From positions 60,001 to 92,000 of the IMG/VR virus record IMGVR_UViG_3300035670_013237: a DNA stretch of 32,000 nt; one strand, given 5' to 3'. Below, one piece after another: positions 2,987 to 32,000 of the stretch (the first letter of the stretch is position 1; every line of letters starts with the position of its first letter). The translations under genes and the position numbers were made by a program. The stretch comes from a virus. The notes under the pieces were generated by a model. It searched no databases and was not told the DNA's origin. It worked only from the letters and a program-made list of their open reading frames with translations.

Positions 2987-2987
2987 C

Positions 2988-10884: not shown

Positions 10885-10927
10885 AATTTTTAGTGATACA
10901 CCCGATAGGATAAGTGTTATTCATAAC

Positions 10928-17065: not shown

Positions 17066-17496
17066 GCATAGACCTTGAAGGGCTGGGTCTTTTCTTTGTA
17101 ACCCCTATAATCGCTCTTGAAACTAAGCAGCCTGGGCTCTATCTCATCAGACTTGACAATCCAGAATTGCGCGCCTGCTGAAATGGCTTTGGCAATTTCT
17201 TTTCTGTCTGAAGATGATGAGATGATGCCAATGACCACACCATTTCCATAAATTTCATTGACACGTCGCACGAGCTCAATTCCATCAAACGACGAGCCAA
17301 CAATGTTGAGGTCGACAAAAACGCATTCAGGCTTCTTCGTCTCACCCCGTGTCCATCTCTGGCACAATTCTTCAGCTGCCTCAGATGAATTCACTGTCTG
17401 CAATTGAAGTGTTATATCAAGGATGCTGCACGCATCTTCGAACACGAGGTGAAATAAGTTCTCGTCGTCGACGAGAAGAATAGACTCGATGATCAT
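17062..17496 (-). CDS. stand-alone response-regulator receiver (CheY-like)
   Basis: ATGA overlap with the kinase stop. LLVDDE acidic pocket, VFVDLNI phospho-acceptor context, IISSSS and FWIVKS (conserved Lys). No output domain. Confidence 0.8.
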   Translation of the reverse strand: MIIESILLVDDENLFHLVFEDACSILDITLQLQTVNSSEAAEELCQRWTRGETKKPECVFVDLNIVGSSFDGIELVRRVNEIYGNGVVIGIISSSSDRKEIAKAISAGAQFWIVKSDEIEPRLLSFKSDYRGYKEKTQPFKVYA

Positions 17497-18551: not shown

Positions 18552-18596
18552 GTAAATATTTCAAAATTCCTATAACTTTTGCCAAAGGTTGCGAAT

Positions 18597-18854
18597 TCAG
18601 CAAATTAGCTTCACATTCTCATGAGAATAAAAGTAAGCTGTCAAAATTTGCCCGCAGGGCTGCCCAGGCTTTGTGAAAAACAACCTAAAATAAACCAAAA
18701 AATTCCCCCTAGGGTCTTTGGAAGACTTGTGCTCTACGTTGAGTATGAGCGCAGCATTTCCATCAACTACTTCACCAGGGGCTAGAAAGTCTCCAGGCAC
18801 AAGATCTTTTGCAGCCCTCGTCTTTACTTGTTTTTCTTCCAAGGGATCCTCCAT
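18597..18854 (-). CDS. small protein of the PGD/SH3-like paralog family
   Basis: LVPGDFLAPGEVVDGNAALILNV shows the family signature [PVI]-G-[DE]-hydrophobic followed by beta-strand patterning. Confidence 0.5.
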   Translation of the reverse strand: MEDPLEEKQVKTRAAKDLVPGDFLAPGEVVDGNAALILNVEHKSSKDPRGNFLVYFRLFFTKPGQPCGQILTAYFYSHENVKLIC

Positions 18855-19096
18855 TCAAAGCCCGACCACACTGTGGTAGATTCAAAGTCATAGGATATAC
18901 CGTTGCTCCATAAGATGGTGACATCCCAAAGTGGTGTGCCCTCAGAGATGAGCATGCCCTCAAATTCATGGGGAGAGTCGCTGCGCCTGAGACAGACTAC
19001 GAGCCCAAGGTCATCGTCGAAATACTTCGAAAAGACGATCATGCCGGGCACCAACTCCTCTGTCGTTACATCTCTCAAGCGCCTATTCACCGCCAT
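18824..19096 (-). CDS. small protein of the PGD/SH3-like paralog family
   Basis: ELVPGMIVFSKYFDDDLGLVVCLRR...VTILWSNG. Confidence 0.55.
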   Translation of the reverse strand: MAVNRRLRDVTTEELVPGMIVFSKYFDDDLGLVVCLRRSDSPHEFEGMLISEGTPLWDVTILWSNGISYDFESTTVWSGFEWRIPWKKNK

Positions 19097-19098
19097 GA

Positions 19099-19139
19099 TT
19101 GAACTTATCTTGAACTTTTGAGAAGTTCACATTTATGAT
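19099..19139 (+). promoter_or_regulatory. divergent-region promoter TTGAAC-N18-TATGAT overlapped by an operator-like TTGAACTT repeat set
   Basis: TTGAACTT occurs at 19099-19106 and 19110-19117, with the inverted copy AAGTTCA at 19123-19129. The -10 is at 19134-19139, 11 nt before ATG 19151. Confidence 0.45.
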
Positions 19140-19150
19140 ACCCCGGTACC

Positions 19151-19432
19151 ATGAAGAACAAAAACACGATTCTCATAGAGATCGCGATACAGTCGGCTGG
19201 GAGAGTGTTCTCAGGGTTATACTGGGGACGATCAACTCCGCTTGAGAGCATACCTTACCTCATTGAGGAAGAGTGTGATCGACAGATCACATCGGTATTC
19301 AAGTCTGAAGATAAGATCTCAGAAAGAGACGTTCACATGTGCAAAATGTATGCCGTCCAGTATTATAACGAATACATGTCTAGAATTATGACCCATAGAA
19401 TGAATCAAATCGAGAGTGAACAAGATGCCTGA
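19151..19432 (+). CDS. hypothetical protein
   Basis: 93-aa ORF downstream of the promoter. Confidence 0.5.
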   Translation: MKNKNTILIEIAIQSAGRVFSGLYWGRSTPLESIPYLIEEECDRQITSVFKSEDKISERDVHMCKMYAVQYYNEYMSRIMTHRMNQIESEQDA

Positions 19433-20252
19433 GGGACCTGAGCTTGCGATTAGTCGTGACATGCTACGACCTGCGTTGGTCGGGAATCAATTGTTGCACA
19501 TGGGTTTCATGGGACGTTATGCAAATAAGTCCCCTGAGGGTTATCAGGATCTTTCTTTTGATTTGTCCCGATCACCCGCAAATATCGTGGAAGTTGACGT
19601 CAAGGGCAAATTCATGTGGTGGAAACTTTCCATCGCCGGCGAACCTGAGCCTTGGTATGTGTGGTGTACGTACGGCATGACCGGCCAGTGGTCGCGGATC
19701 GCCTCAAAACATACATCAATTATTGCGTATCTAGATAACGAAACGTGCATGTTCTTCAATGACCAACGTCGTTTTGGCACCATTAAATTCATCAAAGGCG
19801 ATAAACTTCACCAAAAGAAACTATCCACCCTCGGACCGTGCATTCTTGGTGGCTCGCTAACACCAGAAATATTTGCAAAAAATATTCTAAAGAAACCCTC
19901 AATCACAATTGCAGAAGCGCTGATGGATCAGGGAGTGATATCGGGGGTGGGTAACTATATCAAGGCAGAATGCCTGTATCGAGCGGGCATATCTCCCTGG
20001 CGGGCAGTGACTGATATTGCTGCTCCTGAATTTGTGAAACTGCACCGTGAAGTGCTTGATGTGGCTCGTGAGTCATATGAGTCCCAAGGCGCAACGATTT
20101 ATACGTACAAGAACGTTGATGAATCTGAAGGGTCAGCGCAGTTCGAATTCCAGGCATATGGTCGCAAAACGTGTCCAAGAGGACACGATATCATAAATGA
20201 ACAAACGCCTGAAGGAAGAACGTCATGGTGGTGCCGGACCTGCCAGAAATAA
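19425..20252 (+). CDS. Fpg/Nei family DNA glycosylase/AP lyase
   Basis: N-terminus MPEGPEL (catalytic Pro2/Glu3), H2TH region (GVGNYIKAECLYRAGISP) and a C-terminal zinc-finger region CPRGH...WWCRTC. ATG 19425 is chosen so that Pro is residue 2. Confidence 0.85.
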   Translation: MPEGPELAISRDMLRPALVGNQLLHMGFMGRYANKSPEGYQDLSFDLSRSPANIVEVDVKGKFMWWKLSIAGEPEPWYVWCTYGMTGQWSRIASKHTSIIAYLDNETCMFFNDQRRFGTIKFIKGDKLHQKKLSTLGPCILGGSLTPEIFAKNILKKPSITIAEALMDQGVISGVGNYIKAECLYRAGISPWRAVTDIAAPEFVKLHREVLDVARESYESQGATIYTYKNVDESEGSAQFEFQAYGRKTCPRGHDIINEQTPEGRTSWWCRTCQK

Positions 20253-20266
20253 ATTACGAGGTTTGA

Positions 20267-20452
20267 ATGTTGCCAGGCGATCTTGTCGTGACTTGGACGA
20301 ACGAGGTGGGATTCTTGATATCAGTTATCCTTGTGTCTGAGGATCCCAACAGGGTGAAAAGGGATTATTACGTACTCACCCGCAGTAAAGTATTGAAACT
20401 TGCCTCGGGGTTGTCGGCAATTCGTAGGATTCAAATTGCCTCAAGGGGTTGA
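20267..20452 (+). CDS. small protein of the PGD/SH3-like paralog family
   Basis: MLPGDLVVTWTNEVGFLISVILV is nearly identical in pattern to MPGDLVYLTWSTCG at 24975. Confidence 0.55.
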   Translation: MLPGDLVVTWTNEVGFLISVILVSEDPNRVKRDYYVLTRSKVLKLASGLSAIRRIQIASRG

Positions 20453-20652
20453 CCGTGAAACCAGGTGACATGTTGTTTCTCAATCGTCAATATCGCGTTG
20501 ATCCTGACAATCCTCAGTTTTTTATTTTGTGTATTTCTGTGGTTGAGGACGAAGTTTGCGTCTTGCAAACATGGTTTAAAGATTCAACCACCAACTTGCA
20601 ATCGACCACTCAAGGGGCTCTTAGCCATTTCTATCACAAAGCTATTACATGA
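20449..20652 (+). CDS. small protein of the PGD/SH3-like paralog family
   Basis: VKPGDMLFLNRQYRV...FFILCISVV. Start is TTG 20449 or GTG 20455, overlapping the upstream stop. Confidence 0.5.
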   Translation: MTVKPGDMLFLNRQYRVDPDNPQFFILCISVVEDEVCVLQTWFKDSTTNLQSTTQGALSHFYHKAIT

Positions 20653-20936
20653 AGCACCCAATTACAGGAGCACTCATTGCGTTCAATTGTCCCATGAGTC
20701 TCTTGTCACCCCATGACATGGAAACTATCGAGCGTTCAGGATATGAAGATGAGTTTCAGTTGACTGAACCCAGTTTCATTTGCAGCGAAAAAGACGTAGG
20801 GTTGCTGATTGACAAAAAAGTTGCACGATCACTGTACAGTGCAAGTCAATCAATATATTACAACATACTGTTTGCCCGAGGATCAGGGTGGATTAATTCT
20901 CAATGGGTTCGTCATCCTTATTGTAAAGTCTTATGA
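20649..20936 (+). CDS. small hypothetical protein (shares a C-terminal GW.N..W motif with the next gene)
   Basis: ATGA overlap; C-terminus SGWINSQWVRH. Confidence 0.5.
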   Translation: MKHPITGALIAFNCPMSLLSPHDMETIERSGYEDEFQLTEPSFICSEKDVGLLIDKKVARSLYSASQSIYYNILFARGSGWINSQWVRHPYCKVL

Positions 20937-21268
20937 AGAAATCGTTCAACGTTGGTGACATGGTCTGCATAGATCAATCTACTGACATTTTAACGAGCGC
21001 CCTCCTGGGCTCTGACAGTTTGGTCCTATTAGATGATGGTCAGGTCACCATACTCCAGGGTGGTGGAAGTATCCACGTGCCCATGAAGGATACCTCACCT
21101 AGCATGTACAAATCTGACATCGCTGTGATCATCCAGTGCATTTCTTTCATTAAAGAAGTCAAGACGGTGAATAAAAGAATCCCCTCGTACGAAGTGGGAT
21201 TCAGTAAACTCCTGACCCCACAGGGGATCGGGTGGTGCAACAATAGTTGGTTAAGATTGGTCGACTGA
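20933..21268 (+). CDS. small protein of the PGD/SH3-like family with a C-terminal GW.N..W motif
   Basis: ATGA overlap; FNVGDMVCID near the N-terminus; C-terminus IGWCNNSWLRLV. Confidence 0.55.
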   Translation: MKKSFNVGDMVCIDQSTDILTSALLGSDSLVLLDDGQVTILQGGGSIHVPMKDTSPSMYKSDIAVIIQCISFIKEVKTVNKRIPSYEVGFSKLLTPQGIGWCNNSWLRLVD

Positions 21269-21269
21269 G

Positions 21270-21298
21270 TGCAAATTTTTCGTTGATTATGTTATCAT
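21270..21298 (+). promoter_or_regulatory. sigma70-like promoter TGCAAA-N17-(TGt)TATCAT upstream of uvdE
   Basis: Same hexamers as the pol X promoter. ATG 21312 follows 13 nt later and a GAGGTG SD lies in between. Confidence 0.5.
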
Positions 21299-21311
21299 GA
21301 CCATGAGGTGA

Positions 21312-22247
21312 ATGATGCTAGGCGTTTGTTGTCATTGGCTAGAAGAACGTGTGAAGCCCAAGGGCAAAGTCGAAGTTGTGAATGCGATGGACGAGCGTGT
21401 CCTGCAGCTCGGCCGCTACAGAGACGGGAAGTACTCGCATGAGCAGATCATGTCGACGTACGTCAATAACGCGACGAATCTCGCGAACATGTTACCCAAG
21501 ATCGCGGGGCACGGTGTCAGGCTGTTTCGCATCTCTTCCGCGCTATTTCCTCTCGCGGACCAGGTCGATCGATCCTTGTGGGACAACGACACCGTGCGGG
21601 GAATCCTCCGTGGTGCTGGCGACTTCATCAGGCAAAATGGTATGCGTGTCTCCACACACCCAGGCCAGTTCTGCGTTCTATCATCTGACACTGACAAGGT
21701 AATTGAGAACGCTATCAACGAGCTCAACCTACATGCATGGCTCTTCGACACCATGGGTCTTGACCACTCCCCTCAATATGCCATCAACATCCACGGGGGC
21801 AAGTCAGACCGTGCATCCCGGCTCATCGAGCAGATCAAGTCCCTGCCTGACAGCACACGCAAGCGTCTCACTCTCGAGAACGACGAGACAGCATACTCTC
21901 TCCTCGATCTCCTCGAAGTCCACAAAGAAACCGGGACACCGCTTGTGTGGGACTCCCACCACCACACCTTCAATGACGGTGACCTGACGATGGAAGAAGC
22001 TATGGGACTCGCTTCCGCCACATGGCCTGATGGCATCAAACCCTTGCAACACATCAGCAACACTGAACCCCACTTTATGTCGGGCGGCTCATTCACCGAG
22101 CGCCGCAAACACTCCGACCTAATTCACTACGTGCCAGAGCCCCAGCTCTCAGCACTTCGGGATGGAACGGTCGACTGTGAAGTCGAGGCGAAGCTGAAGA
22201 ATGTATCAGTCTTCAAGATGGCGAAAGATTTCGAAATTCCGATTTGA
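21312..22247 (+). CDS. uvdE: UV-damage endonuclease (UvdE family)
   Basis: STHPGQFCVLSS, INIHGG, LTLENDE and VWDSHHH are the TIM-barrel metal-site motifs of UVDE. Confidence 0.85.
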   Translation: MMLGVCCHWLEERVKPKGKVEVVNAMDERVLQLGRYRDGKYSHEQIMSTYVNNATNLANMLPKIAGHGVRLFRISSALFPLADQVDRSLWDNDTVRGILRGAGDFIRQNGMRVSTHPGQFCVLSSDTDKVIENAINELNLHAWLFDTMGLDHSPQYAINIHGGKSDRASRLIEQIKSLPDSTRKRLTLENDETAYSLLDLLEVHKETGTPLVWDSHHHTFNDGDLTMEEAMGLASATWPDGIKPLQHISNTEPHFMSGGSFTERRKHSDLIHYVPEPQLSALRDGTVDCEVEAKLKNVSVFKMAKDFEIPI

Positions 22248-22257
22248 AGGATTAGAT

Positions 22258-22503
22258 ATGGAGGGGGTTGACATGGTGGCAGTCACTGAATTTCAGGTCC
22301 ACATTTCCCAACAGGAAGAGTTCGAGAATTGTGCCTCTGCAGTGTTCGACTACACAGAGCAGCGCCTGATGCGCTATGTGAAGCTCATCAGCGACCGTCA
22401 GCAGAAGCAGGCACTCAATGATCTCCTCGAGAAATATAGGAAGGGCCGGGTCGCAATCTGCTGGAAGGGTGGTAATCCCTCTTGGCTTGATTTGGACATT
22501 TGA
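22258..22503 (+). CDS. hypothetical protein
   Basis: GAAGGA SD before ATG 22258; 81 aa; not GroES-like. Confidence 0.5.
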   Translation: MEGVDMVAVTEFQVHISQQEEFENCASAVFDYTEQRLMRYVKLISDRQQKQALNDLLEKYRKGRVAICWKGGNPSWLDLDI

Positions 22504-22508
22504 ATGAA

Positions 22509-22537
22509 TTGAACATTTTCACGGATCATTGTATGTT
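22509..22537 (+). promoter_or_regulatory. sigma70-like promoter TTGAAC-N17-TATGTT, 6 nt before the groEL ATG
   Basis: Exact 17-nt spacer; no SD between the -10 and ATG 22544. Confidence 0.5.
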
Positions 22538-22543
22538 TTGTGC

Positions 22544-24142
22544 ATGAGCGAGAGCACAACACAAGTCCTATTCAAAAATGACGCCCGCCGCCAATTGTTC
22601 GTGGGCATGGAGATCGCTGCTGAGGCGGTGTCCACGACCCTTGGCCCAAAGGGTAAGACTGTCCTGATCCAACGTAAGGGTGAAGCGCCTATTGTCACGA
22701 AGGATGGCGTGACTGTGAGCAAGTCAATAAGGTTGCGCGATCCTGTGCAACGCATGGGTGCCGAGCTCATCCGCGAGGCTGCTGCACAGACAAATGAGAT
22801 CGCAGGAGATGGCACGACGACTGCGACTGTCCTCACGCACGCCATGGTGAAAGAGGGACTGAAGCTCCTCGAGGCCGGATATCCCGCGAAAGAACTATGC
22901 AAGGGCATTGAATTAGCGAGGGCCCGTGTGGATGAGAACCTTGCTGCTCTTGCGAAGCGCCTCACAACTGCTGAAGAGATTGCACAAGTGGGCACGATTT
23001 CGGCTAACGGTGACCGTAAGATCGGTGACCTCATTGCAGCAGCAATGGACAAGGTGGGCCGCGATGGCATCATCACGGTGGAAGATGCAAAGGGCATGGC
23101 GACTACCCTCGAGGTCGTCGAGGGCATGCAATTCGATCGCGGTTATCTTTCTCCTTACTTCGTCACCAACCAAGACCGCATGAGCGTCAACTATAATGAC
23201 GCTAGGGTCCTTCTGACTGATAAGAAGCTAAATAACCTAAGAGAATTAGTGCCAATTCTTGAGAAGGTGATGCAAGGCCGCCAGCCCCTCATCATCATCG
23301 CAGAGGACGTCGAAGGTGAAGCTCTACAGGGCCTCGTGCTCAACAGAGTCAATGCGAACCTGCCCGTCGTGGCGGTCAAGGCGCCTGGATATGGACAGCA
23401 TCGGCATGACCTACTCACAGACATCTCAACTCTGACAGGCGCGAAGCTCGTGTCAGCCTCAACAGGACTCAAGTTGGAATCTCTCACCTTGCAGGATCTT
23501 GGCACCCTGAAGCGTGTGGTGGTCGATGCTAAATCGACGACTCTCGTGGGAACAGGGTCAACAAAGTCAAGCGTTGAGGCTCATGTGGAGAACCTCCGCA
23601 CACAGCTTCAAGATGTGACCCTCACGGTCGACGACGTCACGAAGCTGAAGGTGCGAATTGCGAAACTGGCGAGCGGTGTCGCGGTCATTCGCGTGGGCGG
23701 GGCGACAGAGGTCGAGATGATCGAACGCAAGTATAGAATTGAAGATGCCCTCAATGCTACTCGTGCTGCTGCGGAGGAGGGCATCGTGCCCGGCGGCGGC
23801 ATGGCACTTGCTACAATCACGAGCACAATAGATCTTTCTGCTGACTTGCCGCAAGAAGAAGCCATGGGAGCTTCAATCATCACACGAGCATGCCTTGCAC
23901 CGCTGAAGAGGATCTCGCAGAACGCAGGAGTAACACCAGAGGTAATCCTCAGTGAACTCCAGCGAAACCCAGGTAAGGGCTACAACGCCGCGACAGGCGA
24001 GTATGTCGATCTCATCGCGGCCGGTGTCATCGATCCTGTCAAGGTGACACGGACGGCCTTGAAAAACGCTGCCTCAGTTGCCACGACATTCTTGTCTCTT
24101 GATGCAGTCGTCTTTGATGAGGAGGGACAGGCGGGTGAGTAA
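22544..24142 (+). CDS. groEL: GroEL (Cpn60) chaperonin
   Basis: Near-canonical LGPKGKTVLI, PIVTKDGVTVSK, AGDGTTTATVLTHA and VAVKAPGYG motifs along the full length. ATG 22544 gives an MSESTTQVLF N-terminus. The protein ends ...EEGQAGE without a GGM tail. Confidence 0.95.
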   Translation: MSESTTQVLFKNDARRQLFVGMEIAAEAVSTTLGPKGKTVLIQRKGEAPIVTKDGVTVSKSIRLRDPVQRMGAELIREAAAQTNEIAGDGTTTATVLTHAMVKEGLKLLEAGYPAKELCKGIELARARVDENLAALAKRLTTAEEIAQVGTISANGDRKIGDLIAAAMDKVGRDGIITVEDAKGMATTLEVVEGMQFDRGYLSPYFVTNQDRMSVNYNDARVLLTDKKLNNLRELVPILEKVMQGRQPLIIIAEDVEGEALQGLVLNRVNANLPVVAVKAPGYGQHRHDLLTDISTLTGAKLVSASTGLKLESLTLQDLGTLKRVVVDAKSTTLVGTGSTKSSVEAHVENLRTQLQDVTLTVDDVTKLKVRIAKLASGVAVIRVGGATEVEMIERKYRIEDALNATRAAAEEGIVPGGGMALATITSTIDLSADLPQEEAMGASIITRACLAPLKRISQNAGVTPEVILSELQRNPGKGYNAATGEYVDLIAAGVIDPVKVTRTALKNAASVATTFLSLDAVVFDEEGQAGE

Positions 24143-24521
24143 GCTTAAAGAGCAAGAGCTCACGGACCAGATCCAACTAATCAACTGGGGTGGAACGTCA
24201 CCTGCTGAGCGTCGCACGTTTACAGAAGCTCTAGCACAGTTAGAGATCGCGGCTCTTGTTGACATGCAGGCTGCGACTGCGCGTCGCAGCCGGTTATCAT
24301 CTCTCGTTGTGGCTCTCGTGGGCGTTCTTTTAGCATCTCTCCTGGGAGCTGCACCTCCCACGCTGATCATGGTGGCTCTCGGTACTCAGCTTCTGATGTT
24401 CGTCGTGAGTCAAGTCTTGGAAAACGCATCTAAGAAGCTACTCGCAGCGGCTGAGGCACGAGCTCTTGAGAGGGTTGAATTTCTGGCAAAGAGACACCCG
24501 CTCCCACCAGCCCAAGACTAA
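24135..24521 (+). CDS. two-TM membrane protein
   Basis: GTG 24135 overlaps the groEL stop by 8 nt (ATG 24117 is an alternative). TM segments LSSLVVALVGVLLASLLGA and LIMVALGTQLLMFVVSQVL. Confidence 0.5.
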   Translation: MSKLKEQELTDQIQLINWGGTSPAERRTFTEALAQLEIAALVDMQAATARRSRLSSLVVALVGVLLASLLGAAPPTLIMVALGTQLLMFVVSQVLENASKKLLAAAEARALERVEFLAKRHPLPPAQD

Positions 24522-24527
24522 TATTTA

Positions 24528-24779
24528 ATGAACATGGATGATTATTATACCCCAGGCCAGCTCGTCACACGGCGGTATCGCTGGAGTATAAGTTCTCATG
24601 TACTGGGAATTGTTATTCACACACCTGTAGATGATGAAAACCTGCTCACTGTGCTCTGGGCGCAGAATGATACATGTCAAGGCAACCCCACAATGGCAGA
24701 CTGCCACCGCAGCAACCTGCTGCCAGTCGATGAAGATTCATCCGCACAGCTAGGATCGCGATGTCAGATCACTACATAG
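24528..24779 (+). CDS. small protein of the PGD/SH3-like paralog family
   Basis: YTPGQLVTRRYRWSISSHVLGIVIH...LLTVLWAQ. Confidence 0.5.
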   Translation: MNMDDYYTPGQLVTRRYRWSISSHVLGIVIHTPVDDENLLTVLWAQNDTCQGNPTMADCHRSNLLPVDEDSSAQLGSRCQITT

Positions 24780-24985
24780 GAGAATTTGTGCTCTATAGGC
24801 CTGCTCGGGTGGGTCGTGGGGAGAGTGTCGCAATGATCTTATCGATCAAGAATTCTAATTCACCTCGCTGGTCCAGTGAGATTGATTATCAGCACGTGTA
24901 CTATGTGCTCACTAATTCTGGTAATGTAGAAGGTCCGCTATTCTCGTCGGAGCTGTTGAGTGTTTCAAAAGTACATGCCGGGTGA
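24761..24985 (+). CDS. small protein of the PGD/SH3-like paralog family
   Basis: YIGEFVLYRPARVGRGESVAMILSI...YYVLTNSG; compare YYVLTRSK at 20267. Confidence 0.5.
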   Translation: MSDHYIGEFVLYRPARVGRGESVAMILSIKNSNSPRWSSEIDYQHVYYVLTNSGNVEGPLFSSELLSVSKVHAG

Positions 24986-25199
24986 CCTTGTCTACTTAAC
25001 CTGGAGCACCTGCGGCACAATACATGATCCTGCAAATCCGCTTCAAGCGCATTATCTCTGGCTCAATAAGGGCCAATACGGAATGATCGTGGGAGGTCTT
25101 GGGCACCCGTCTAAGGAAACGCGGGGTGAAATTGAAATGCTGACTTTCATTGAGGGTAAATTGATCTGGGTCGAGTGCGACTGCCTGGAGCTCTTATGA
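24975..25199 (+). CDS. small protein of the PGD/SH3-like paralog family
   Basis: ATG 24975 gives MPGDLVYLTWSTCG and overlaps the upstream stop by 11 nt. Confidence 0.55.
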   Translation: MPGDLVYLTWSTCGTIHDPANPLQAHYLWLNKGQYGMIVGGLGHPSKETRGEIEMLTFIEGKLIWVECDCLELL

Positions 25200-25409
25200 C
25201 ATGTCAGCGATGATCTCTTGAATGAGCTCTCTCAGCGCGGCATGATCCACGCTCTCAGCCTCGATCGCCGCTATCTGCCCTTGGGCACCCTTCCGTGATG
25301 TGTGGCAGTTGCGGTGTTTCTTGCCCTTCTTGTCTTTGTACGATAGGACATAGCTGCCCCTGTCGCCGTCTGATTGCTTACACTTTTGTTTGCGAATTGT
25401 GTATGGCAT
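25194..25409 (-). CDS. small basic hypothetical protein
   Basis: 71-aa ORF on the opposite strand. Lys-rich N-terminal half with CK...CH; the C-terminus ALRELIQEIIADMS resembles the shared leader motif. Confidence 0.5.
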   Translation of the reverse strand: MPYTIRKQKCKQSDGDRGSYVLSYKDKKGKKHRNCHTSRKGAQGQIAAIEAESVDHAALRELIQEIIADMS

Positions 25410-25430
25410 GCTTTTACCCTGTAGATGTTG

Positions 25431-25459
25431 TGCAGTATAAATTATGTTCTAGGCATAAT
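25431..25459 (+). promoter_or_regulatory. sigma70-like promoter TGCAGT-N17-CATAAT, 7 nt before ATG 25467
   Basis: Lies in the divergent intergenic region; no SD. Confidence 0.4.
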
Positions 25460-25466
25460 TAGTTCC

Positions 25467-25703
25467 ATGAGAATGACGATTGCTGAGCTCAGGCAGATAG
25501 TGCGAGAAGAAGTTGAGCGCAACAATCGTTGGCTCGCGGGATTTTTTATCGGCGGGGGAATTAGCGGGGGTCGCAAAGGAACGATCACACCTCCCCTCGG
25601 CTTGGGGACAGAAGAAGAACAAGAACACCATGGCGAAGAACAACAAGAAGAACCAAGGCAGGCAGGAGAAGAGCGGTGGGCGAGAGCGGGAAGACGCCGT
25701 TGA
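25467..25703 (+). CDS. small protein, strict member of the N-terminal leader family
   Basis: Starts [20 protein letters not shown]. The 3' 74 nt overlap infA in another frame within a purine-rich tract, so the true stop is uncertain. Confidence 0.5.
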
Positions 25704-25899
25704 ACTCAATGGCACAGTCGACGAGGCCCTACCCGGGACCTTTTTTAGGGTCATATGCGAGGGCGGTCACACGGTGCTCGCTACACTCTCAGGCAAATTG
25801 AGAATGAATCACATCAAGGTGCTTCCAGGTGACTCGGTCACTGTCGAGGTCTCACCTTACGATTTAACGCGGGGAAGGATTTGTTGGCGTAAGGCTTGA
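25630..25899 (+). CDS. infA: translation initiation factor IF-1 homolog with a basic N-terminal extension
   Basis: [63 protein letters not shown] aligns residue by residue with bacterial IF-1 (S1-like OB fold). It is preceded by [24 protein letters not shown]. Confidence 0.9.
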
Positions 25900-26017
25900 G
25901 CCTGTGACGTGCAAAATCGAGAGATAAGAGGTGATACTTGAGCCCAAGTCGGCGCATGCCTAGCAATAAGCAGAACTTCGACGCGAAGAAATAAAATCCG
26001 TGCTTCGTCTTACGCAT
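25838..26017 (-). CDS. possible 59-aa basic ORF below the ORF-track cutoff
   Basis: AGGAGG SD 7 nt upstream of ATG 26017 (hand translation [25 protein letters not shown]...). The last 62 nt are antisense to the infA 3' end. Confidence 0.25.
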
Positions 26018-26112
26018 GCCATACCCTCCTTAAATTTGTGCCTATCTTACCCCATATTTTTCCATGACATTACTTATTCAAAGATTTGCAATAGGAATCC
26101 ATATTTAGACTT

Positions 26113-26475
26113 ATGAAGATCACAGAATCAGATTTGAGAAAGATCATTGTAAGTGAGATCGCTGCTCTTCGTGAAGAGACCGAGGGCCCTCCGCAAGTGG
26201 GAAAAGAGAAGGCTGACACCAAGGGAACTCTCGACATAAGTTCCATCGCGAAAGTGCTTCAGGTGGACCCTGGGAAACTAAAATCTGCTGTCGCTGCGGC
26301 GAAGGCTGGGAAGCGCTCTTCAGGTCACAACGCAATTCTTGGTGATGTTTTCGTCAAGTTGATGGAGGCCTCGCCTGAAGACACTGTCAAGGTAATGAAC
26401 ATGTTGAAGAAAGTGACGAGCAGCGAATCCGCAGGTTCTGGTGCACAACCAGGAAAACCGCAGAAGACAGCCTGA
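26113..26475 (+). CDS. hypothetical protein, strict member of the N-terminal leader family
   Basis: Starts MKITESDLRKIIVSEIAALREE. Confidence 0.6.
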   Translation: MKITESDLRKIIVSEIAALREETEGPPQVGKEKADTKGTLDISSIAKVLQVDPGKLKSAVAAAKAGKRSSGHNAILGDVFVKLMEASPEDTVKVMNMLKKVTSSESAGSGAQPGKPQKTA

Positions 26476-26496
26476 CATGAGCGCTTATTCATTCCC

Positions 26497-26811
26497 ATGA
26501 AAATAACAATAGGAAACCTCAGGCAAATTATTAGAAAATCTCTCAGTGAGGCCGGGGGTGCCCGTCCGAGCCGTCCGCAGCCTTATACAAGGAATGCAAT
26601 GGCACCTGACCTCGCTGACCGCGTGGCCATTGGCCGTCTTGAGACGGGGGAACCTGAAGAGGAAGAGCTACCCCCACACCTGAGAGAGCCCGTTGTTGAT
26701 TTCGAGGATTGCTATGGGCCAGTGCCTCCCATCGCGGGAGATCCTTATGTCGGGCAGGATCCCTTTGCACGTGACTATTCTCCCCTGCCCACGCCTGCGA
26801 TCAAGCGCTAA
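26497..26811 (+). CDS. hypothetical protein, strict member of the N-terminal leader family
   Basis: Starts MKITIGNLRQIIRKSLSEAGG; Pro-rich remainder. Confidence 0.6.
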   Translation: MKITIGNLRQIIRKSLSEAGGARPSRPQPYTRNAMAPDLADRVAIGRLETGEPEEEELPPHLREPVVDFEDCYGPVPPIAGDPYVGQDPFARDYSPLPTPAIKR

Positions 26812-29301
26812 TTAAGCAAGACGAGCGTAGGTAAAGTACCTGCAAATTGGCGTGGGCACTGGGCCTGCTGAAAAGTCTGCGCCCGTGAATCCACCGCCCA
26901 GCGTAACGACTGAGTTATAAATCCCCAGAGCCCTGACAGTGTTATTGACTCCTGGACGCCAGAATGTCAGGGCGCCACCGTCACGTGCGAACGATGCGAT
27001 GCCACCGCGGATGAACGGTCCTGAGGCATTAAACGCCCCGCCCGCAAAGACATCTCTTACATTTAGATCCAAAGAATGAACGGAGTTATTCAAGAGTGGT
27101 GCCCAGCCTACAAGCGCAGAATCGCTTCCGTACTCAACTGCACCGATGTAGTTTCTGGTCACCCCGCCCAGGGTCCCAAAGTCCCCACCAGCGTACACAA
27201 TATTATTGTCAGTATCAATAGCGAGTGCGCGGACTGTGTTATCTGCCCCTGGATTCCAAGAAGAAACATTTCCAGTGGACAATGATATTGCCGCGATGTT
27301 ACTTCGCGACTGTCCATCCACTGTTGAAAAATCACCTCCCACGATAGCATATGTTCCTCCGCTAGCGAGAACCCCGATACTCAACACACTTCCTGGAGAG
27401 CTAGGATTAACACTGGGCGCCCAAGATGATAAAGTCAGCGTCGGAGCGTCTATAATTGCTAATTTGTCGCGGGGCTGTCCCATGAATGTGGAAAACGCAC
27501 CTCCCACAATCAAGACATTAGAAGTTGAACTTCGCCTTTTTATTGCTGTAACAATGTTGTCTGCGTCCAAATTATTGGGTAAATCATTACTTGAAGGTAT
27601 ATCAACAGCACAGAAGTTTTGGTGGGCCGTACCGCCGATCTGTGTGAAGCTCCCACCGACGAAAAGAATGTCAGAGACTCTGGCGAGCGCAAAAACTGTG
27701 GAATCAGCGTTGCATATCCAACTTATGTCGAGGGTTCCGTCTGCGTTTATGTGTGCCAATCGCTGGCGTGTGTATTGCTGACCATTTCCATAGAAACTGC
27801 CCCCAATTACAAATTGATCGCCATCATAGAACGCAGATGCCCTGACAACATCATTCGTTTTTTTGGTATGGTTCATGGGTGTGTCCAGAGGTGTGTCGCT
27901 TGTCGTCGTGGTGACTGCGAGATTTTTTACGCTCTGCCCGCCGACGTCGTCGAACAACCCTCCGATCACGACATATCCACCATCTGAGGTCGCAAGAGTG
28001 TGAACAGACCCATTTGTGTTCGGGTCCCATGCTGTCAGAGCAAAAGACGGCAAATTAAATTGTGCAACATGATTTCGCGCTGTGCCGTCCATGTCGGTGA
28101 AGTCTCCGCCCACATGAAGATAATTGTCAGCTGAGATTGCGAGCGCTCTAACGACTCCATCTGGATTTTGTACCCATGTCAAATTTGCAGTCGACGTGGC
28201 GGGTTGCGGGCCGATCAGCGCGAGACGGTCAAGGGCATCTGCGCCAACTTGTGTAAAGTCACCCCCAACGATGACAGATGATAGATACGTAGCAACTGCA
28301 TACGCGGGCCCGTTCAGGTTGGGATCCCAGCTCGATGCGCTGTTACTATTGTTTGCGACGGACCCCAGATAATTGCGTGTCTCACCCCCGAGGCTCGTAA
28401 AGTCTCCACCAGCAATTACCCATGTGTTGTCCAGAGCGAGGCACCGTACCGTATCGTTTGCGCCGGGATTCCATGTCGTTGCGCTGTTACTATCCAGGGG
28501 AATTGCTGCTAAGTTCTGCCTGCTCTTCCCACCAATGACGTTGAAGTTTCCCCCAACGATGACTGTGGGGTCGCCTGAAGTGTCAAGGACGAGACTGTAG
28601 ACGGTTCCATTTACCTGTGGATCCCAGTCTGAGACTGTTCCGTCGCTCATGACACGAGCAAGACCACGACGAATTTCGCCCCTGCACATGGTAAAGTTTC
28701 CGCCAATGATGTATCCCCCATCTCCATCAGGGATGGCCGCGAAGACAGTCCCATCAGTAAAGTTCCCGACGAGGACGTCAACGTTTGATCCCCCAATAAT
28801 TATAGAAGTCGCCGATGTACCGAGTACATCCTCTGCATCAGTAATGCTCGTGAAAGTGCCTCCAATGAAGTATCCTCCACTTCCGTCAGGCTCCATTGCA
28901 TAGATGTCACCGTCGAGGGCGATGGGTACCCCGAGGGAGGGCAGGGCGCTATTCACCACAGCGTCGACAATGTCCTGGGACGATGCTTCGCCATAGAGCC
29001 TCTGCACTTCCACTCCTCTCCTGTATAGGACTGTCGTGGGTAGACTACCGACCGAAGCAATCCCCGCGGCAGTTGCAGCGACATCGGTATCAGCATACAA
29101 GAAATCGACATCAGTGCCATCTGCATTGATGATCTCTTCAGCGACCGTGAATTCTTCATGGGTCGCATCCGTTCTCTCCTGCGGGACAGTTGGGGTTTCA
29201 CCTATGTCGGCCAGAGAGCCAAAGAGGACGATCGTCGGGCGGGTGGTGTTGAGCTGGACGTCTGTGATCCAGTCATTATCGTTCGTGTTGTTGACTGCCA
29301 T
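26812..29301 (-). CDS. large repeat protein: degenerate thioredoxin-fold N-domain plus ~15 beta-propeller (delta-60/DUF5122-like) repeats
   Basis: About 15 repeats of [IV]-x-G-G-x-F-[TS]...G..R.[NH].[LI]A......W.P..N..V.[AS]L at roughly 45-50 aa spacing. Residues ~20-115 align with the adjacent thioredoxin but lack CxxC. Confidence 0.8.
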   Translation of the reverse strand: MAVNNTNDNDWITDVQLNTTRPTIVLFGSLADIGETPTVPQERTDATHEEFTVAEEIINADGTDVDFLYADTDVAATAAGIASVGSLPTTVLYRRGVEVQRLYGEASSQDIVDAVVNSALPSLGVPIALDGDIYAMEPDGSGGYFIGGTFTSITDAEDVLGTSATSIIIGGSNVDVLVGNFTDGTVFAAIPDGDGGYIIGGNFTMCRGEIRRGLARVMSDGTVSDWDPQVNGTVYSLVLDTSGDPTVIVGGNFNVIGGKSRQNLAAIPLDSNSATTWNPGANDTVRCLALDNTWVIAGGDFTSLGGETRNYLGSVANNSNSASSWDPNLNGPAYAVATYLSSVIVGGDFTQVGADALDRLALIGPQPATSTANLTWVQNPDGVVRALAISADNYLHVGGDFTDMDGTARNHVAQFNLPSFALTAWDPNTNGSVHTLATSDGGYVVIGGLFDDVGGQSVKNLAVTTTTSDTPLDTPMNHTKKTNDVVRASAFYDGDQFVIGGSFYGNGQQYTRQRLAHINADGTLDISWICNADSTVFALARVSDILFVGGSFTQIGGTAHQNFCAVDIPSSNDLPNNLDADNIVTAIKRRSSTSNVLIVGGAFSTFMGQPRDKLAIIDAPTLTLSSWAPSVNPSSPGSVLSIGVLASGGTYAIVGGDFSTVDGQSRSNIAAISLSTGNVSSWNPGADNTVRALAIDTDNNIVYAGGDFGTLGGVTRNYIGAVEYGSDSALVGWAPLLNNSVHSLDLNVRDVFAGGAFNASGPFIRGGIASFARDGGALTFWRPGVNNTVRALGIYNSVVTLGGGFTGADFSAGPVPTPICRYFTYARLA

Positions 29302-29330
29302 GCCGAATACGTATAGGCGGCAGGACCTGA

Positions 29331-29663
29331 TCAGCCCAGCAATTCATTGTAGACAGCTTCAACCTGTGCCCTGGGCAGCGCCCCCAAGAGCCGCTTCACC
29401 TCAGCACCACCCTTATAGCAAACATGGGTCGGAACTGAACGAACTTTGGCGTTGGAAGTTGCCTCGGGTGCCTCATCAATGTCGACGTGAAAAGATGCGA
29501 CCCTGCCGTTGAACTGCGCGGCGACAGCCTCATGGGTCGGCTGGAAAGCTCGGCAGGGCGGGCACCATACGGCGCCGTATGTGACCCACACCGGAATGGG
29601 CGACTCGAGGACCTGCTTCTCAAAACGGACATCATTGACTTCCACGACATGCTCTGTGCTCAT
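29331..29663 (-). CDS. trx: thioredoxin
   Basis: VTYGAVWCPPCRAF active site and the SVPTHVCYKGG cis-Pro loop; ATG 29663 preferred over TTG 29672. Confidence 0.85.
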   Translation of the reverse strand: MSTEHVVEVNDVRFEKQVLESPIPVWVTYGAVWCPPCRAFQPTHEAVAAQFNGRVASFHVDIDEAPEATSNAKVRSVPTHVCYKGGAEVKRLLGALPRAQVEAVYNELLG

Positions 29664-29700
29664 ATGGAGCAATTGTAAACACGTTCTGCCGTCGGTGAAA

Positions 29701-29865
29701 TTATTTTTTCCTGCTCTCCAGCCCTTCCTCAGGCTTGGATCTCCATGGGCAGTGTCGACAGTTTCGGCTGCAGCACCAGCCCCGCTTCAAGTGAAAAGCC
29801 TCGGTAAAAACGTACCGTGTGCCCTCGAGATAGAAGTCGACGCCCTCAACCAGATCTTTTTTCAT
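29701..29865 (-). CDS. 54-aa Cys-rich protein (CC-x4-C-x2-C-P-W; DUF5522-like), missing from the ORF track
   Basis: Hand translation: MKKDLVEGVDFYLEGTRYVFTEAFHLKRGWCCSRNCRHCPWRSKPEEGLESRKK. The ATG lies 4 nt after the upstream stop and the ORF fills an otherwise empty 197-nt gap. Confidence 0.55.
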   Translation of the reverse strand: MKKDLVEGVDFYLEGTRYVFTEAFHLKRGWCCSRNCRHCPWRSKPEEGLESRKK

Positions 29866-29869
29866 TGGA

Positions 29870-30094
29870 TTACTTAATCCGCAAGAATAGAGCGTCCCAC
29901 CTGCATGTTGTTTCCCATGTTTTAAATTCGTTCAGCCAATGCAGGGCAAACTTTCTCTCGCCGGGGAGGGCGACCTTTGACACTAAAATGCGAATGCCCC
30001 TGCCTGAGACAATCATATCACCGGGCTGGAGCAGGTCCGCTAAAACGTAATCGCTGAGTTGCATTTGGGATGTACTGTGCTTCCTGTATGTCAT
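29870..30094 (-). CDS. small protein of the PGD/SH3-like paralog family
   Basis: LLQPGDMIVSGRGIRILVSKV...FALHWLN; ATGA overlap with the upstream gene. Confidence 0.55.
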   Translation of the reverse strand: MTYRKHSTSQMQLSDYVLADLLQPGDMIVSGRGIRILVSKVALPGERKFALHWLNEFKTWETTCRWDALFLRIK

Positions 30095-30297
30095 TCTGTG
30101 ATGATGTCGAGCTCAGAGTTTGTTGGATACAGGCTCGTGTGTAATTTTAGTGTGCGACAATTAAGCCAGAAGAGCCTGACTGCGCCACTGGGCAAGTCAC
30201 GCTTTACCACTCCAATTAAAAAGTGAAAAATGCCTGACTGCTCTTGGAGCCAGATATCTCCAATCTTTAGTTCACTGACTGGTACTCGGACTTTCAC
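30091..30297 (-). CDS. small protein of the PGD/SH3-like paralog family
   Basis: LKIGDIWLQEQSGIFHFLIGVV...VRLFWLN. Confidence 0.55.
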   Translation of the reverse strand: MKVRVPVSELKIGDIWLQEQSGIFHFLIGVVKRDLPSGAVRLFWLNCRTLKLHTSLYPTNSELDIITE

Positions 30298-30314
30298 ATT
30301 GTTGTTCCACTAAT

Positions 30315-30590
30315 TCAATGCAACCTTCCACTCGAGTGTATAGTGCGCTCGCCGAATTGTGCAACGTGATCGATGTGTAATGTGTGCACCTGTCCGCCCG
30401 CTAGCGCTGTGACGATGGACACATCACCCCAAATGCTCGATGGCTTCTTCTCAAGGACCAACATGTCCTTGAAGTCAAGTCCCCACGCCCACAGCAAGTA
30501 CTCTGGAACTCCACTTGAGGTCTCTTCGTAGGGTTCCAGGTCAGGTATCGAGACCCAAGTTCCCGGTGTCAGGCTGTCTATCGTCATCAT
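30315..30590 (-). CDS. small protein of the PGD/SH3-like paralog family
   Basis: ATG 30590 gives MMTIDSLTPGTWVSIPD...; overlaps the methyltransferase 3' end by about 50 nt. The longer 30731 start would lie deep inside the MTase gene. Confidence 0.45.
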   Translation of the reverse strand: MMTIDSLTPGTWVSIPDLEPYEETSSGVPEYLLWAWGLDFKDMLVLEKKPSSIWGDVSIVTALAGGQVHTLHIDHVAQFGERTIHSSGRLH

Positions 30591-31680
30591 GCGTTGATTC
30601 ACCCTTCTTATCATCAAAGTACACTGTAGAGCTGCAACTTTGCACGCTCGCTGCCTCTGCTTCTGCAAGCTCAAGGCACTTCCAAAAGAGACCTGCCACC
30701 ATGCTGCGGCTGTATATCTTCTGAGTGGCACCCATGTAATTGCTCAAAAAGAGCCCGTGGTATTGTTGTCGAAATTTCTGCATTTTTTCGTTGAATAGCT
30801 CGACTACCCTTTCCTGCAGAGGAGGGGGCAGGTCCACGTCTAATACCATCTGGTACGTGGTGAAAGTCGTGTCACGGCACACGATGGGGTCCCCCTTGTT
30901 GATCGACAGGCCCTGCGGGGCACGCCCCGCGTCCAGGAGTCCCACGACAATGTTCGTCAAGAAGCCGCTCTCCTTGCCCGTCCACTTGCCGATGGGCCGC
31001 TCAGGACCCTTGATGAAATCGAAGAAGTCCTTGCCGTGGAGCCAGTCGTACTTTCGCTCGAGGTGGAGCTCAACGTAGCGAACATCAGAGCTCGAATAGT
31101 GGATCCTGCACGGGAAGCGTCGCTCTCCTGTGTCGCTGTCACGTCTGAAGGCAAAGATGGTGATGCCTGTCGTCGTGTTAGGGAAGACCTGGTAATAATA
31201 GTAATCGCACTGGGTGATTGTGTACCGTGAGAAGAAGAGCTCCCGGGCCTTAGGGCGACTCTCGGACAAGAAGTTGGTGGGAAGGATGATGACACCCTCA
31301 TCAAGGTCGTCAGCGAAGGACGCAATATGACACTTATAGAGATCGCTTTGTCCCCACATTGCATATGCACCCTTATCCTTATTCTTATTGGACGCGAGAT
31401 ACGGTGGATTGGTGAGGAGGAACTTTCCGGTAAAAGCGGGTGGATTCAGGATCGAGTCCCTCGCGGACACTGCGGGCTGTCGGGGCTCGAGATCATATCC
31501 TTCAACACTTCGGGCGCCATACGCCACCGCGAAGTGAAGCAGATCGCAGTCACCCGCGAACGGATCGATCACATCCTTGTCACGGAGGAGGTGGGTGTAT
31601 AGTCCCAGCAGGTCTTCGGCATTCGTCGTAAAAAATTGTCCGTGCTTCTGCTCGTGCGTCTGGCGCGTGTGCTTCTTCAT
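30541..31680 (-). CDS. N6-adenine DNA methyltransferase (gamma-class motif order)
   Basis: GQFFT (motif X), VIDPFAGDCDLL (motif I) and LLTNPPYL (motif IV, NPPY), followed by a ~250-aa putative target-recognition region. Confidence 0.8.
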   Translation of the reverse strand: MKKHTRQTHEQKHGQFFTTNAEDLLGLYTHLLRDKDVIDPFAGDCDLLHFAVAYGARSVEGYDLEPRQPAVSARDSILNPPAFTGKFLLTNPPYLASNKNKDKGAYAMWGQSDLYKCHIASFADDLDEGVIILPTNFLSESRPKARELFFSRYTITQCDYYYYQVFPNTTTGITIFAFRRDSDTGERRFPCRIHYSSSDVRYVELHLERKYDWLHGKDFFDFIKGPERPIGKWTGKESGFLTNIVVGLLDAGRAPQGLSINKGDPIVCRDTTFTTYQMVLDVDLPPPLQERVVELFNEKMQKFRQQYHGLFLSNYMGATQKIYSRSMVAGLFWKCLELAEAEAASVQSCSSTVYFDDKKGESTHDDDRQPDTGNLGLDT

Positions 31681-31739
31681 GTTCTTTTAATAACAACTAT
31701 CTGTGGTTTGGATTCTAAATTGTGCGGAGAATGACAATA

Positions 31740-31952
31740 TCATTCCACGCTCTGGTGTATGACAAAATCTTTATTGTCATCAAGGACGCCTACATAAAGC
31801 ATTCTATTTCGGCTGGGTCCCCAAAAATGAATGAGGTCGCCTGTCTCAAGACACTCTATTCTAATAATCATACCCGTGGCCAGGTGATCCCGGGCCAGTC
31901 GACCAGAAAAATCGCTGATCAGATAGACGCTGATGAGATCACCTACTTTCAT
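31740..31952 (-). CDS. small protein of the PGD/SH3-like paralog family
   Basis: MKVGDLISVYLISD...GMIIRIECLETGDLIHFWG. Confidence 0.5.
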   Translation of the reverse strand: MKVGDLISVYLISDFSGRLARDHLATGMIIRIECLETGDLIHFWGPSRNRMLYVGVLDDNKDFVIHQSVE

Positions 31953-32000
31953 TCAATTCTTTCCATGAAGGCTTTATAAATTCCGTTTTTTACACCACAA

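Follow-up and report, generated by a model that had tools for sequence, protein, structure and literature searches.

The 32,000-nucleotide stretch of viral DNA analyzed here (positions 60,001 to 92,000 of the IMG/VR record IMGVR_UViG_3300035670_013237, hereafter the window) contains 13 small open reading frames (ORFs) that were reported to share a short N-terminal signature, in which a glycine and an acidic residue are followed by a hydrophobic residue. These ORFs probably reflect a lineage-specific expansion of stand-alone SH3-like miniproteins in a huge freshwater phage, with the proteins acting, most likely, as binding or adaptor modules. The phage lineage would have multiplied the genes of stand-alone small beta-barrel proteins of 55–110 amino acids, in which a first strand, M-K-P-G-D-L-V, would be followed by a variable loop or insert, a hydrophobic strand of the form h-G-h-V-L-E, a strand ending in K-V-L, a G-x-G-W-I turn, and a last strand, L-x-L-V. 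The C-terminal half of this predicted SH3-like barrel shows a recognizable relationship to the bacterial SH3 (SH3b) domains. The genes would form head-to-tail, translationally coupled arrays, with overlaps of either 4 nucleotides (nt; ATGA) or 14 nt (ATGAAACCNGGTGA), and their products would act in the cytoplasm as binding or adaptor modules, each with a different host or phage partner during the infection.

All 13 ORFs, which were flagged in a first-pass annotation of the sequence, were recovered with the signatures, coordinates, and strands reported for them. The five clusters that they were said to form, at 18597–19096(−), 20267–21268(+), 24528–25199(+), 29870–30731(−), and 31740–31952(−), were also confirmed, as was their tight packing, with overlaps of 4 nt (ATGA) or longer. 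The strict [PVI]-G-[DE]-hydrophobic pattern is present in nine of the 13 ORFs, with variants of the acidic position being found in m18824 (PGM), m24528 (PGQ), and m30315 (PGT), and the sequence TGALI in m20649. The motif lies 5–25 residues into the protein, behind an N-terminal leader, in m18597, m18824, m29870, and m30091.

The window belongs to a contig of 86,220 bp (Logan; run SRR11566349), and identical pieces are found in the JGI metagenome 3300034073. For each region, the frequency of the strict motif, defined as [PVILTSQ]-G-[DE]-[LIVMFYW] in residues 1–35, was evaluated against 2000 shuffles that preserved the composition. In the portion of the window between 15.8 and 31.7 kb, nine of the 23 small genes carry the motif (shuffle mean 1.0, maximum 5), as do 17 of the 35 small genes in the array located just past the end of the window (shuffle mean 1.6, maximum 8). 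The motif is found in none of the 16 small genes (shuffle mean 0.43, maximum 4) of the 20 kb locus L018, which is made up of window positions 1–11160 and approximately 9 kb of the contig before the start of the window. Given that the motif is far above the shuffles in two regions, and absent from the small genes of the third, the signature is both real and regional.

The relationship among the proteins becomes apparent primarily through the comparison of profiles. Pairwise BLAST and phmmer searches, together with single-seed jackhmmer, recovered almost no links among the 13 window members, and links emerged only once related phage loci joined the profiles. These relatives, which were retrieved through the UvdE gene, come from JGI metagenome and GOS records, as well as IMG/VR contigs as long as 361 kb. 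When an ORF of one such locus (L025_17656) was used as the seed, jackhmmer converged without recovering any reversed decoy, and the 37 ORFs with E < 1e-3 include m20933 (1e-11, with 0 decoys) and m20649 (2e-8). With the filters off, 81 real ORFs ranked ahead of the first decoy. In hhsearch, 239 small profiles were searched together with 239 reversed decoys (highest decoy 37%), and membership was assigned at a profile–profile probability of at least 70% to the core members, that is, the family defined by alignments A3 and A4, above all the decoys.

Five window members can be demonstrated, by this comparison of profiles, to belong to one family. These include the core members m20933 (20933–21268, +; 111 amino acids; 99.8%), which has NVGDMV near its N-terminus and GIGW...LRLV at the C-terminus, and m20649 (20649–20936, +; 95 amino acids; 98.9%), with a degenerate N-terminal ITGALIAF and a C-terminal GSGWINSQWV. 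The short form m20267 (20267–20452, +; 61 amino acids, MLPGDLVV) is linked at 94.9%, through 46 columns to L025_18405, with the first decoy at rank 54. The probable members are m24761 (24761–24985, +; 74 amino acids, IGEFVL), with matches of 92.7% and 87.6% to core profiles over 46–56 columns, and m24528 (24528–24779, +; 83 amino acids, TPGQLV), at 79%, with the first decoy at rank 32. Overall, the profile links of the supported members span 46–78 columns, and extend beyond the motif. The G-x-G-W C-terminus is clear in m20933 and m20649, but is either missing or ambiguous in the short forms and the other window members. On the whole contig, 19 ORFs reach a probability of at least 70%, most of them past the end of the window, and the original estimate of at least 13 copies is too low.

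The membership of a further three ORFs is plausible. The first of these, m31740 (31740–31952, −; 70 amino acids, MKVGDLI), reaches 54–60%, in the motif columns only, while m20449 (20449–20652, +) reaches 50% to the core family and 77% to the non-core profile L001_14375. This ORF has 67 amino acids when read from the TTG at 20449, and 65, beginning with MKPGDML, when read from the GTG at 20455, which is the more likely start, with an AAGGGG upstream at Shine–Dalgarno distance. The third is m24975 (24960–25199, +; MPGDLVYLTWS), which has 79 amino acids from the GTG at 24960 or 74 from the ATG at 24975, and reaches 44% over 44 columns, with the first decoy at rank 14; its hhalign comparison with A4 covers the motif only.

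The other five ORFs have only the motif and a compatible strand pattern in common with the family. They are m29870 (29870–30094, −; 74 amino acids, QPGDMIV; 16% to the core family and 44% to the profile g1289), m18824 (18824–19096, −; 90 amino acids, VPGMIV; 7–20%), m18597 (18597–18854, −; 85 amino acids, VPGDFL; 2–16%, with a decoy at rank 3), m30091 (30091–30297, −; 68 amino acids, KIGDIWL; 1%), and m30315 (30315–30590, −; 91 amino acids from the ATG at 30590, TPGTWV; 1%), the 138-amino acid GTG form of which would extend to 30731. Possibly, m30091 is a paralog of m29870, given that it is 38% identical to the m29870 domain in the MAFFT alignment A6, with a shared [FH]WLN sequence. The description of all 13 ORFs as paralogs thus holds for the five linked members, is borderline for three, and is not supported by hhsearch for the remaining five. 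The suggestion that two longer proteins, at 9119 and 13436, carry the same module was not upheld, with hhsearch probabilities of 28% and 0.5%, respectively.

The family appears to be uncatalogued and phage-restricted, and distantly tied, at the sequence level, to the bacterial SH3b domains. Searches of Pfam, PHROGs, and NCBIfam with 33 members returned no family match, only scattered singletons at E ≥ 0.02. A seven-sequence profile searched against 5.8 billion proteins retrieved 112 relatives at E ≤ 1e-3, all of them labeled as hypothetical and none with a Pfam domain. These relatives come from JGI, ENA, and Logan, together with a small number of NCBI metagenome records. HMMER, run exhaustively on 1.84 billion cluster representatives, recovered 123 clusters, mostly of 57–110 amino acids, with end-to-end matches. 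Around 12 matches of this search were long proteins hit several times on profile positions ~44–89 and identified by Pfam as bacterial SH3 (SH3_3, SH3_4, GW) repeat proteins, with 2–16 SH3_3 repeats and, in some cases, a fusion to NlpC/P60 or lysozyme. These repeat proteins were retrieved by the family profile at E 1e-13 to 1e-4. In hhalign, A4 matched one SH3b domain at 81% over 27 columns (W-x-K-V-L...G-x-G-W-I...L) and a second at 33%, the similarity being partial and confined to the last 27–31 columns, in the C-terminal half. The motif glycine and the C-terminal tryptophan are conserved in 99% and 100% of the A4 sequences, respectively.

Elsewhere, the A4 profile found nothing at E ≤ 10 among the PDB sequences, a tblastn search of the GenBank phages with a typical member (P0004) found no match, and a pattern scan of 185,579 species genomes for the 89-amino acid subfamily (A8) found no relatives, within the limits of that scan. 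The only PDB sequence matches of the A1 profile, built from 33 motif-bearing ORFs, were NlpC/P60 proteins (CwlO and Spr/MepS), at a non-significant E of 0.5–1.7. An identity as NlpC/P60 peptidases was considered and rejected, given that the match is limited to the motif and Pfam NLPC_P60 is not found; the region of the catalytic cysteine and the histidine residues are absent, and the proteins are therefore not peptidases.

Structures were predicted for two of the window members. The AlphaFold2 model of m20933, based on a 113-sequence alignment, is a beta-barrel with a mean predicted local distance difference test (pLDDT) score of 81.6 and a predicted template modeling (pTM) score of 0.74. In this model, the G-D motif leads into a short first strand (residues 10–13), followed by a two-helix insert, with 45 residues of helical sequence between strands 1 and 2, and then four to five strands. 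The first-ranked Foldseek match in the PDB is the Dda helicase, which bears an SH3-like insert, followed by many spectrin, Abl, and other SH3 domains, and one PWWP domain, with the SH3 matches having an E of 0.12–0.9 and template modeling (TM) scores of 0.3–0.4 relative to the query. Among the predicted viral structures of BFVD, the matches are small uncharacterized phage proteins (probability 0.95–1.0, E 0.004–0.3) and SF1 helicases. The m29870 domain was modeled from alignment A6, of 11 window members trimmed to the motif, given that the untrimmed MAFFT alignment misaligned the motif. This model (pLDDT 72) has four strands and a C-terminal helix, and its top Foldseek matches are the eIF5A N-domain, the RfaH KOW domain, and chromo-like domains, at E ≥ 0.19. 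On these models, an SH3-like small barrel is the best available description of the core family, and is compatible with m29870. The SH3/Tudor/KOW-like barrel predicted in the first-pass annotation is retained, then, as the best description of the fold, based on the m20933 model, the SH3b profile matches, and the similarity of m29870 to eIF5A-N and KOW, although none of the structural matches is significant.

A codon model trained on the long genes ranked the annotated frame as the best of six in 12 of the 13 members, the exception being m31740. An 85-amino acid antisense ORF at 31722–31979(+) covers m31740 and outscores it in this model (0.25 versus 0.11), while the array context favors m31740. 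Four members score below the long-gene range of 0.14–0.37, that is, m20449 (0.02), m20649 (−0.02), m24528 (0.05), and m20267 (0.08). The gene caller used for the Logan contig omitted m20449 and m24528 and called m30315 as a protein of 91 amino acids, and the JGI record has m20449 as one of 60 amino acids.

Orthologs are available for a number of these genes. Those of m20267, m20449, m20649, and m20933 are found in conserved order on the short contigs L021–L024 (m20649 in L021, L022, and L024), and the database orthologs of m20933 (P0001-3) are 66–90% identical. The ratio of nonsynonymous to synonymous substitution rates (dN/dS, Nei–Gojobori) is 0.07 in m20933 and 0.08–0.09 in m20649. Both m20267 and m20449 have intact orthologs in L024, 92% and 91% identical, respectively, with a dN/dS of 0.57 (from only 10 substitutions) and 0.36, in both cases based on too few substitutions for a firm ratio. 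Homologs of m24528 occur in L026, L028, and L031 (32–48% identity), and those of m24761 in L001, L003, L026, L028, and L031, while the 89-amino acid subfamily is 76–91% identical across many metagenome samples. No differences from the window were found in loci L020 and L060, and only a single-nucleotide polymorphism, in the Fpg gene, in L061, which makes a population dN/dS from other samples impossible. Taken together, the frame scores, orthologs, and dN/dS values indicate that the ORFs are genes, under purifying selection where this is measurable. The identity of m20649 to L022/L024 is 96%, while that of the adjacent m20933 is 70%, which implies a recombination breakpoint at the gene boundary.

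Most of the copies of the family on the contig are located in the array beyond the window, rather than in the window itself. Past m31740, which overlaps the next gene by 4 nt, there is a run of approximately 35 consecutive small genes (40–140 amino acids) on a single strand, of which m31740 is the last. This run occupies positions 1136–10213 of L019, in which 10001–10213 corresponds to window 31740–31952, with the remainder of the positions cited for this locus lying past the end of the window. At least 17 of these genes have an MKPGD-type start, and many begin with exactly M-K-[PVLT]-G-D-[LM]-[VI]. In related phages, approximately 22 MKPGDLV genes are arranged in a row in L025 (with a UvdE 71% identical), and around 10 in tandem in L028, while the number and position of the paralogous genes vary from phage to phage. 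The paralogs are old. Purifying selection maintains each of them individually, while related phages show a turnover of both the content and the position of the genes.

The junctions between the genes are also recurrent. Among 41 starts of the form M-x-[PVILT]-G-D, 16 overlap the upstream ORF (of at least 40 codons) by 4 nt (ATGA or GTGA), and eight overlap it by 14 nt (ATGAAACCNGGTGA), with the upstream stop being the TGA found inside GGTGA. In the 14-nt class, a single stretch of DNA is read as HETR followed by the stop and, in the other frame, as MKPGD, and many L025 genes end in HETR and the stop. In the window, m24761 ends in HAG, its TGA being located inside the GGTGA of the MPGD of m24975. 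Start-junction sites are found at window 24975–24986, at 16010, 17112, 17287, 17656, and 18214 in L025, and at 698 and 873 in L028. The ATG-AAA-CCN-GGT-GA junction contains TGA in both alternative frames (positions 2–4 and 12–14), and many starts are preceded by a strong Shine–Dalgarno sequence, GAGGTGAT, often encoded by the E-V-I C-terminus of the upstream protein. The motif proline is encoded by CCT in 14 cases, CCC in 14, CCA in nine, and CCG in four, and this spread over all four codons indicates selection of the residue at the protein level; the aspartate is split between GAT and GAC (36/23).

These junctions provide the basis for one alternative reading, in which the 13 ORFs would be a mixed set and the shared signature convergent, imposed by the gene junction and not by descent. 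Stops in both other frames and an A-rich second codon would allow the upstream ORF to terminate beside the next start, permitting termination–reinitiation. This reading, which we consider unlikely, draws on the frequency of the 4-nt and 14-nt overlaps (16 and eight of the 41 starts), on the HETR ends of L025, which are the MKPGD DNA read in another frame, on the five window members with no profile link, and on the fact that GGT, obligatory in the 14-nt class, also makes up 64% of the glycine codons in the other cases, as against 26% in the long genes. The randomized third position of the proline codon and the GAT/GAC split, however, indicate that it is the residues, and not just the bases, that are selected. 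The motif is also found behind leaders in m18597, m18824, m29870, and m30091, where no junction exists, while the profile links of the supported members reach 46–78 columns, and the glycine, conserved in 99% of the A4 sequences, is part of a motif that enters the first strand of the m20933 model.

It appears highly unlikely that several of these ORFs are not genes, but reading frames present by chance in intergenic or overlapping DNA. The uncalled m20449 and m24528, the four codon scores below the long-gene range, and the antisense ORF that beats m31740 would all fit this reading, although the annotated frame is the best of six in 12 of the 13 members, and m20649, which has the lowest score of all, has a dN/dS of 0.08–0.09 and a profile link of 98.9%. 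In addition, m20449 and m20267 are intact and approximately 91% identical in L024, m24528 has homologs in three loci, and the ORFs fill gene-free gaps exactly, with start–stop overlaps. The view of the first-pass annotation that these are real, tightly packed genes is thus supported. The diversifying selection that it proposed is contradicted wherever orthologs allow an assessment, and the host-factor-binding or anti-defense role that it suggested is speculative. A rapidly diversifying arsenal of host-factor binders or anti-defense proteins, under positive selection, is distinctly improbable as an explanation. It would be consistent with the extreme divergence of the paralogs, with pairwise similarities near zero, the variation in copy number, position, and content among related phages, and the lack of an ortholog of most window members in loci in which UvdE is 47–71% identical, as well as with a location in an accessory region among host-like genes and the absence of relatives in the 185,579 species genomes, within the limits of the pattern scan. 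Set against this are the strongly purifying dN/dS of 0.07–0.09 where orthologs exist, the 76–91% identity of the 89-amino acid subfamily across many metagenomes, and a lack of similarity to named anti-defense proteins (in PHROGs, only singletons at E ≥ 0.02; the PADLOC library was not scanned).

A number of observations weigh against the interpretation preferred here, of a lineage-specific expansion of SH3-like miniproteins. For five of the 13 ORFs, no sequence link to the family could be detected, and the hhalign comparison of single window members with the 113-sequence family alignment aligns only the motif, of 8–11 residues. No Foldseek match is significant, with E ≥ 0.12 in the PDB and E ≥ 0.004 in BFVD, while the homology of the sequences aligned for the m29870 model is uncertain, and this model has a helix at its end in place of a fifth strand. 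Neither SH3_3 nor any other SH3 family of Pfam matches any of the 33 members (hmmscan, E ≤ 1). The motif glycine codon is GGT in 64–68% of cases, in comparison with 26% in the long genes, and in 64% of those where no stop is needed, which indicates that a constraint at the nucleotide level also acts on the motif. One possibility is that this bias is explained by the junction, with its stops in both alternative frames.

As for the role of the miniproteins, the members lack a conserved polar triad, the conserved positions being glycine, tryptophan, leucine, valine, and a few acidic residues. The members have neither a signal peptide nor a transmembrane or hydrophobic segment (maximum KD19 < 1.8), and the isoelectric points range from 4.7 to 10.1. 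Given this absence of a catalytic signature, signal peptide, and transmembrane segment, together with the varied charge, a binding or adaptor role is the most likely, and a repertoire of cytoplasmic, non-enzymatic binding modules would be the most economical reading. Their targets may be host defense proteins, the machinery of transcription or translation, or phage proteins. A more specific proposal, which we regard as doubtful, is that the phage has a previously undescribed repertoire of SH3b-derived miniprotein binders, with dozens per genome, each adapted to its own host or phage target, in which the junction ATGAAACCNGGTGA, with its stops in both other frames and a Shine–Dalgarno sequence located in the end of the upstream gene, would act as a frame-independent cassette boundary, permitting genes to be duplicated, swapped, or inserted with the translational coupling being maintained.

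The surroundings of the array provide some indication of the type of virus involved. The products encoded on the contig include DNA polymerase III alpha, thymidylate synthase, thymidine kinase, dCMP deaminase, superoxide dismutase, Nudix, a nitrilase-like protein, and a FEN-type nuclease, as well as Fpg, UvdE, GroEL, thioredoxin, a histidine kinase with its response regulator, an NPPY methyltransferase, and an IF-1-like protein. A 521-amino acid protein at 14266–15831(−) is approximately 30% identical to “virion structural proteins” of Synechococcus myophages of ~200 kb and of a 485 kb uncultured phage. A megablast search of the GenBank phages with 17 kb of the sequence found no nucleotide match, and a pattern scan of IMG/VR for the capsid-like protein returned nothing. 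The sample names of the relatives retrieved through UvdE are presumably those of freshwater lakes. The source was treated here as a huge (jumbo-type) freshwater phage, with the window located in its accessory-gene region.

In the cluster at 18597–19096(−), m18824 and m18597 would be the first genes of an apparent operon (window 16535–19096, −) that includes the PAS histidine kinase (17493–18551, −) and the response regulator (17062–17541, −), and would stop at a strong terminator-like hairpin at 16508–16527. Given a promoter-like site before 19151(+), the interval at 19097–19150 may be a divergent control region. The scan for promoter and terminator consensus sequences was barely above the shuffles, and supports only the terminator at 16508–16527(−) and a possible promoter before 19151. 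Beside the cluster at 29870–30731(−), a thioredoxin gene (29331–29672) is found, with an 829-amino acid protein (26812–29301, −) directly downstream, which has DUF5122/Rax2-type beta-propeller repeats and a weak thioredoxin-like N-terminus. The ORF at 13436–13732(+), of 98 amino acids and with the sequence LVAPVGDRIIV, has a superficial resemblance to the GroES signature, and was evaluated as a GroES-like partner of the phage GroEL (22529–24142), for which no obvious partner is present. This identity was rejected, with no Pfam match at E ≤ 1, and no GroES in the PDB search with a three-ortholog profile; its orthologs are present in L001 and L003.

A second N-terminal signature, M-[KR]-I-T-x3-L-R-x-[IV]-I-[KR]-E-E-[IV]...G-G, is found at the start of at least five otherwise unrelated ORFs (alignment A9), with sites at window 16276, 26113, 26497, 10234, 25467, and 2988, all on the plus strand. 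This signature could be a shared targeting or propeptide sequence, by analogy with the capsid-targeting sequence of the T4 internal proteins. In more distant relatives, a DNA element is repeated at least 25 times (L006 400–4600, L007 600–4100, and L050 270–5800), with spurious ORFs that read P-N-R-F-G-R-x-G-T on one strand and C-Q-L-A-R-A-G-S-A-G-L-A-R on the other. Two multi-copy “protein” clusters in these three loci were rejected as translations of this element, rather than proteins.

Huge phages have hundreds of small genes with no annotation, and the recognition of a sizeable block of these, in one freshwater clade, as a single expanded family turns dozens of “hypothetical proteins” into one tractable target. 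More than 100 clusters would be annotated by solving one structure and running a small number of interaction screens. If the proteins are specific binders of the host machinery, they would represent a natural library of miniprotein inhibitors or adaptors, and the architecture of the junctions would illustrate, in compact form, how phages maintain the translation of long arrays of tiny genes. If the junction is a cassette boundary, it would also constitute a built-in mechanism for the growth and reshuffling of the repertoire. Otherwise, this would be one more lineage-specific expansion of the type found in the jumbo phages.

Among known systems, the SH3b domains (PF08239 SH3_3, PF06347 SH3_4, and PF13457 GW) resemble the family in the small five-strand beta-barrel, which is predicted here, and in the C-terminal W-x-K-V-...-G-x-x-G-W-[IV]-x4-L. 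An SH3b domain usually forms part of a secreted cell-wall hydrolase or endolysin, and binds peptidoglycan. The miniproteins, in contrast, are stand-alone, with 55–111 amino acids, no signal peptide, an MKPGDLV strand in first position, and dozens of tandem copies, and no member reaches Pfam SH3_3, with the similarity extending only over the last 27–31 residues. The eukaryotic-type SH3, Tudor/PWWP, KOW, and eIF5A N-domains occupy the top Foldseek ranks for both AlphaFold2 models, with target-normalized TM scores of ~0.5–0.58, but differ in the lack of a significant match (E ≥ 0.12) or any sequence relation, and in the 45-residue helical insert of m20933. In the NlpC/P60 segment PGDLVFF...HVGIY, the PGDLV and the next hydrophobic strand align with the profile of the motif-bearing ORFs, albeit at E 0.5–1.7, and the miniproteins begin downstream of where the catalytic cysteine would be.

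In terms of genomic organization, the T4-type phages have hyperplastic regions of small early genes, and share with the present array the densely packed small ORFs, which vary between relatives and lie between conserved modules. In the hyperplastic regions, however, these are unrelated ORFans, whereas a large fraction of the ORFs here share one protein family and one start junction. A parallel in scale is found in the Bacillus phage G, a jumbo phage with a lineage-specific expansion of approximately 35 zinc-ribbon copies (Iyer et al. 2021, PMC7824862), which are also dozens of copies of a small, non-enzymatic domain in a very large phage, with proposed roles as binders or regulators. The family described here differs in its predicted SH3-like fold, its freshwater metagenomic clade, and its translationally coupled arrays with a conserved start junction. 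Small SH3-fold proteins have already been noted in jumbo phages (PMC7824862), and lineage-specific expansions of small domains in these phages are on record as a known phenomenon. What is new here is the particular family, the scale of the expansion, which reaches dozens of copies in the genomes of a number of related phages, and the conserved start junction.

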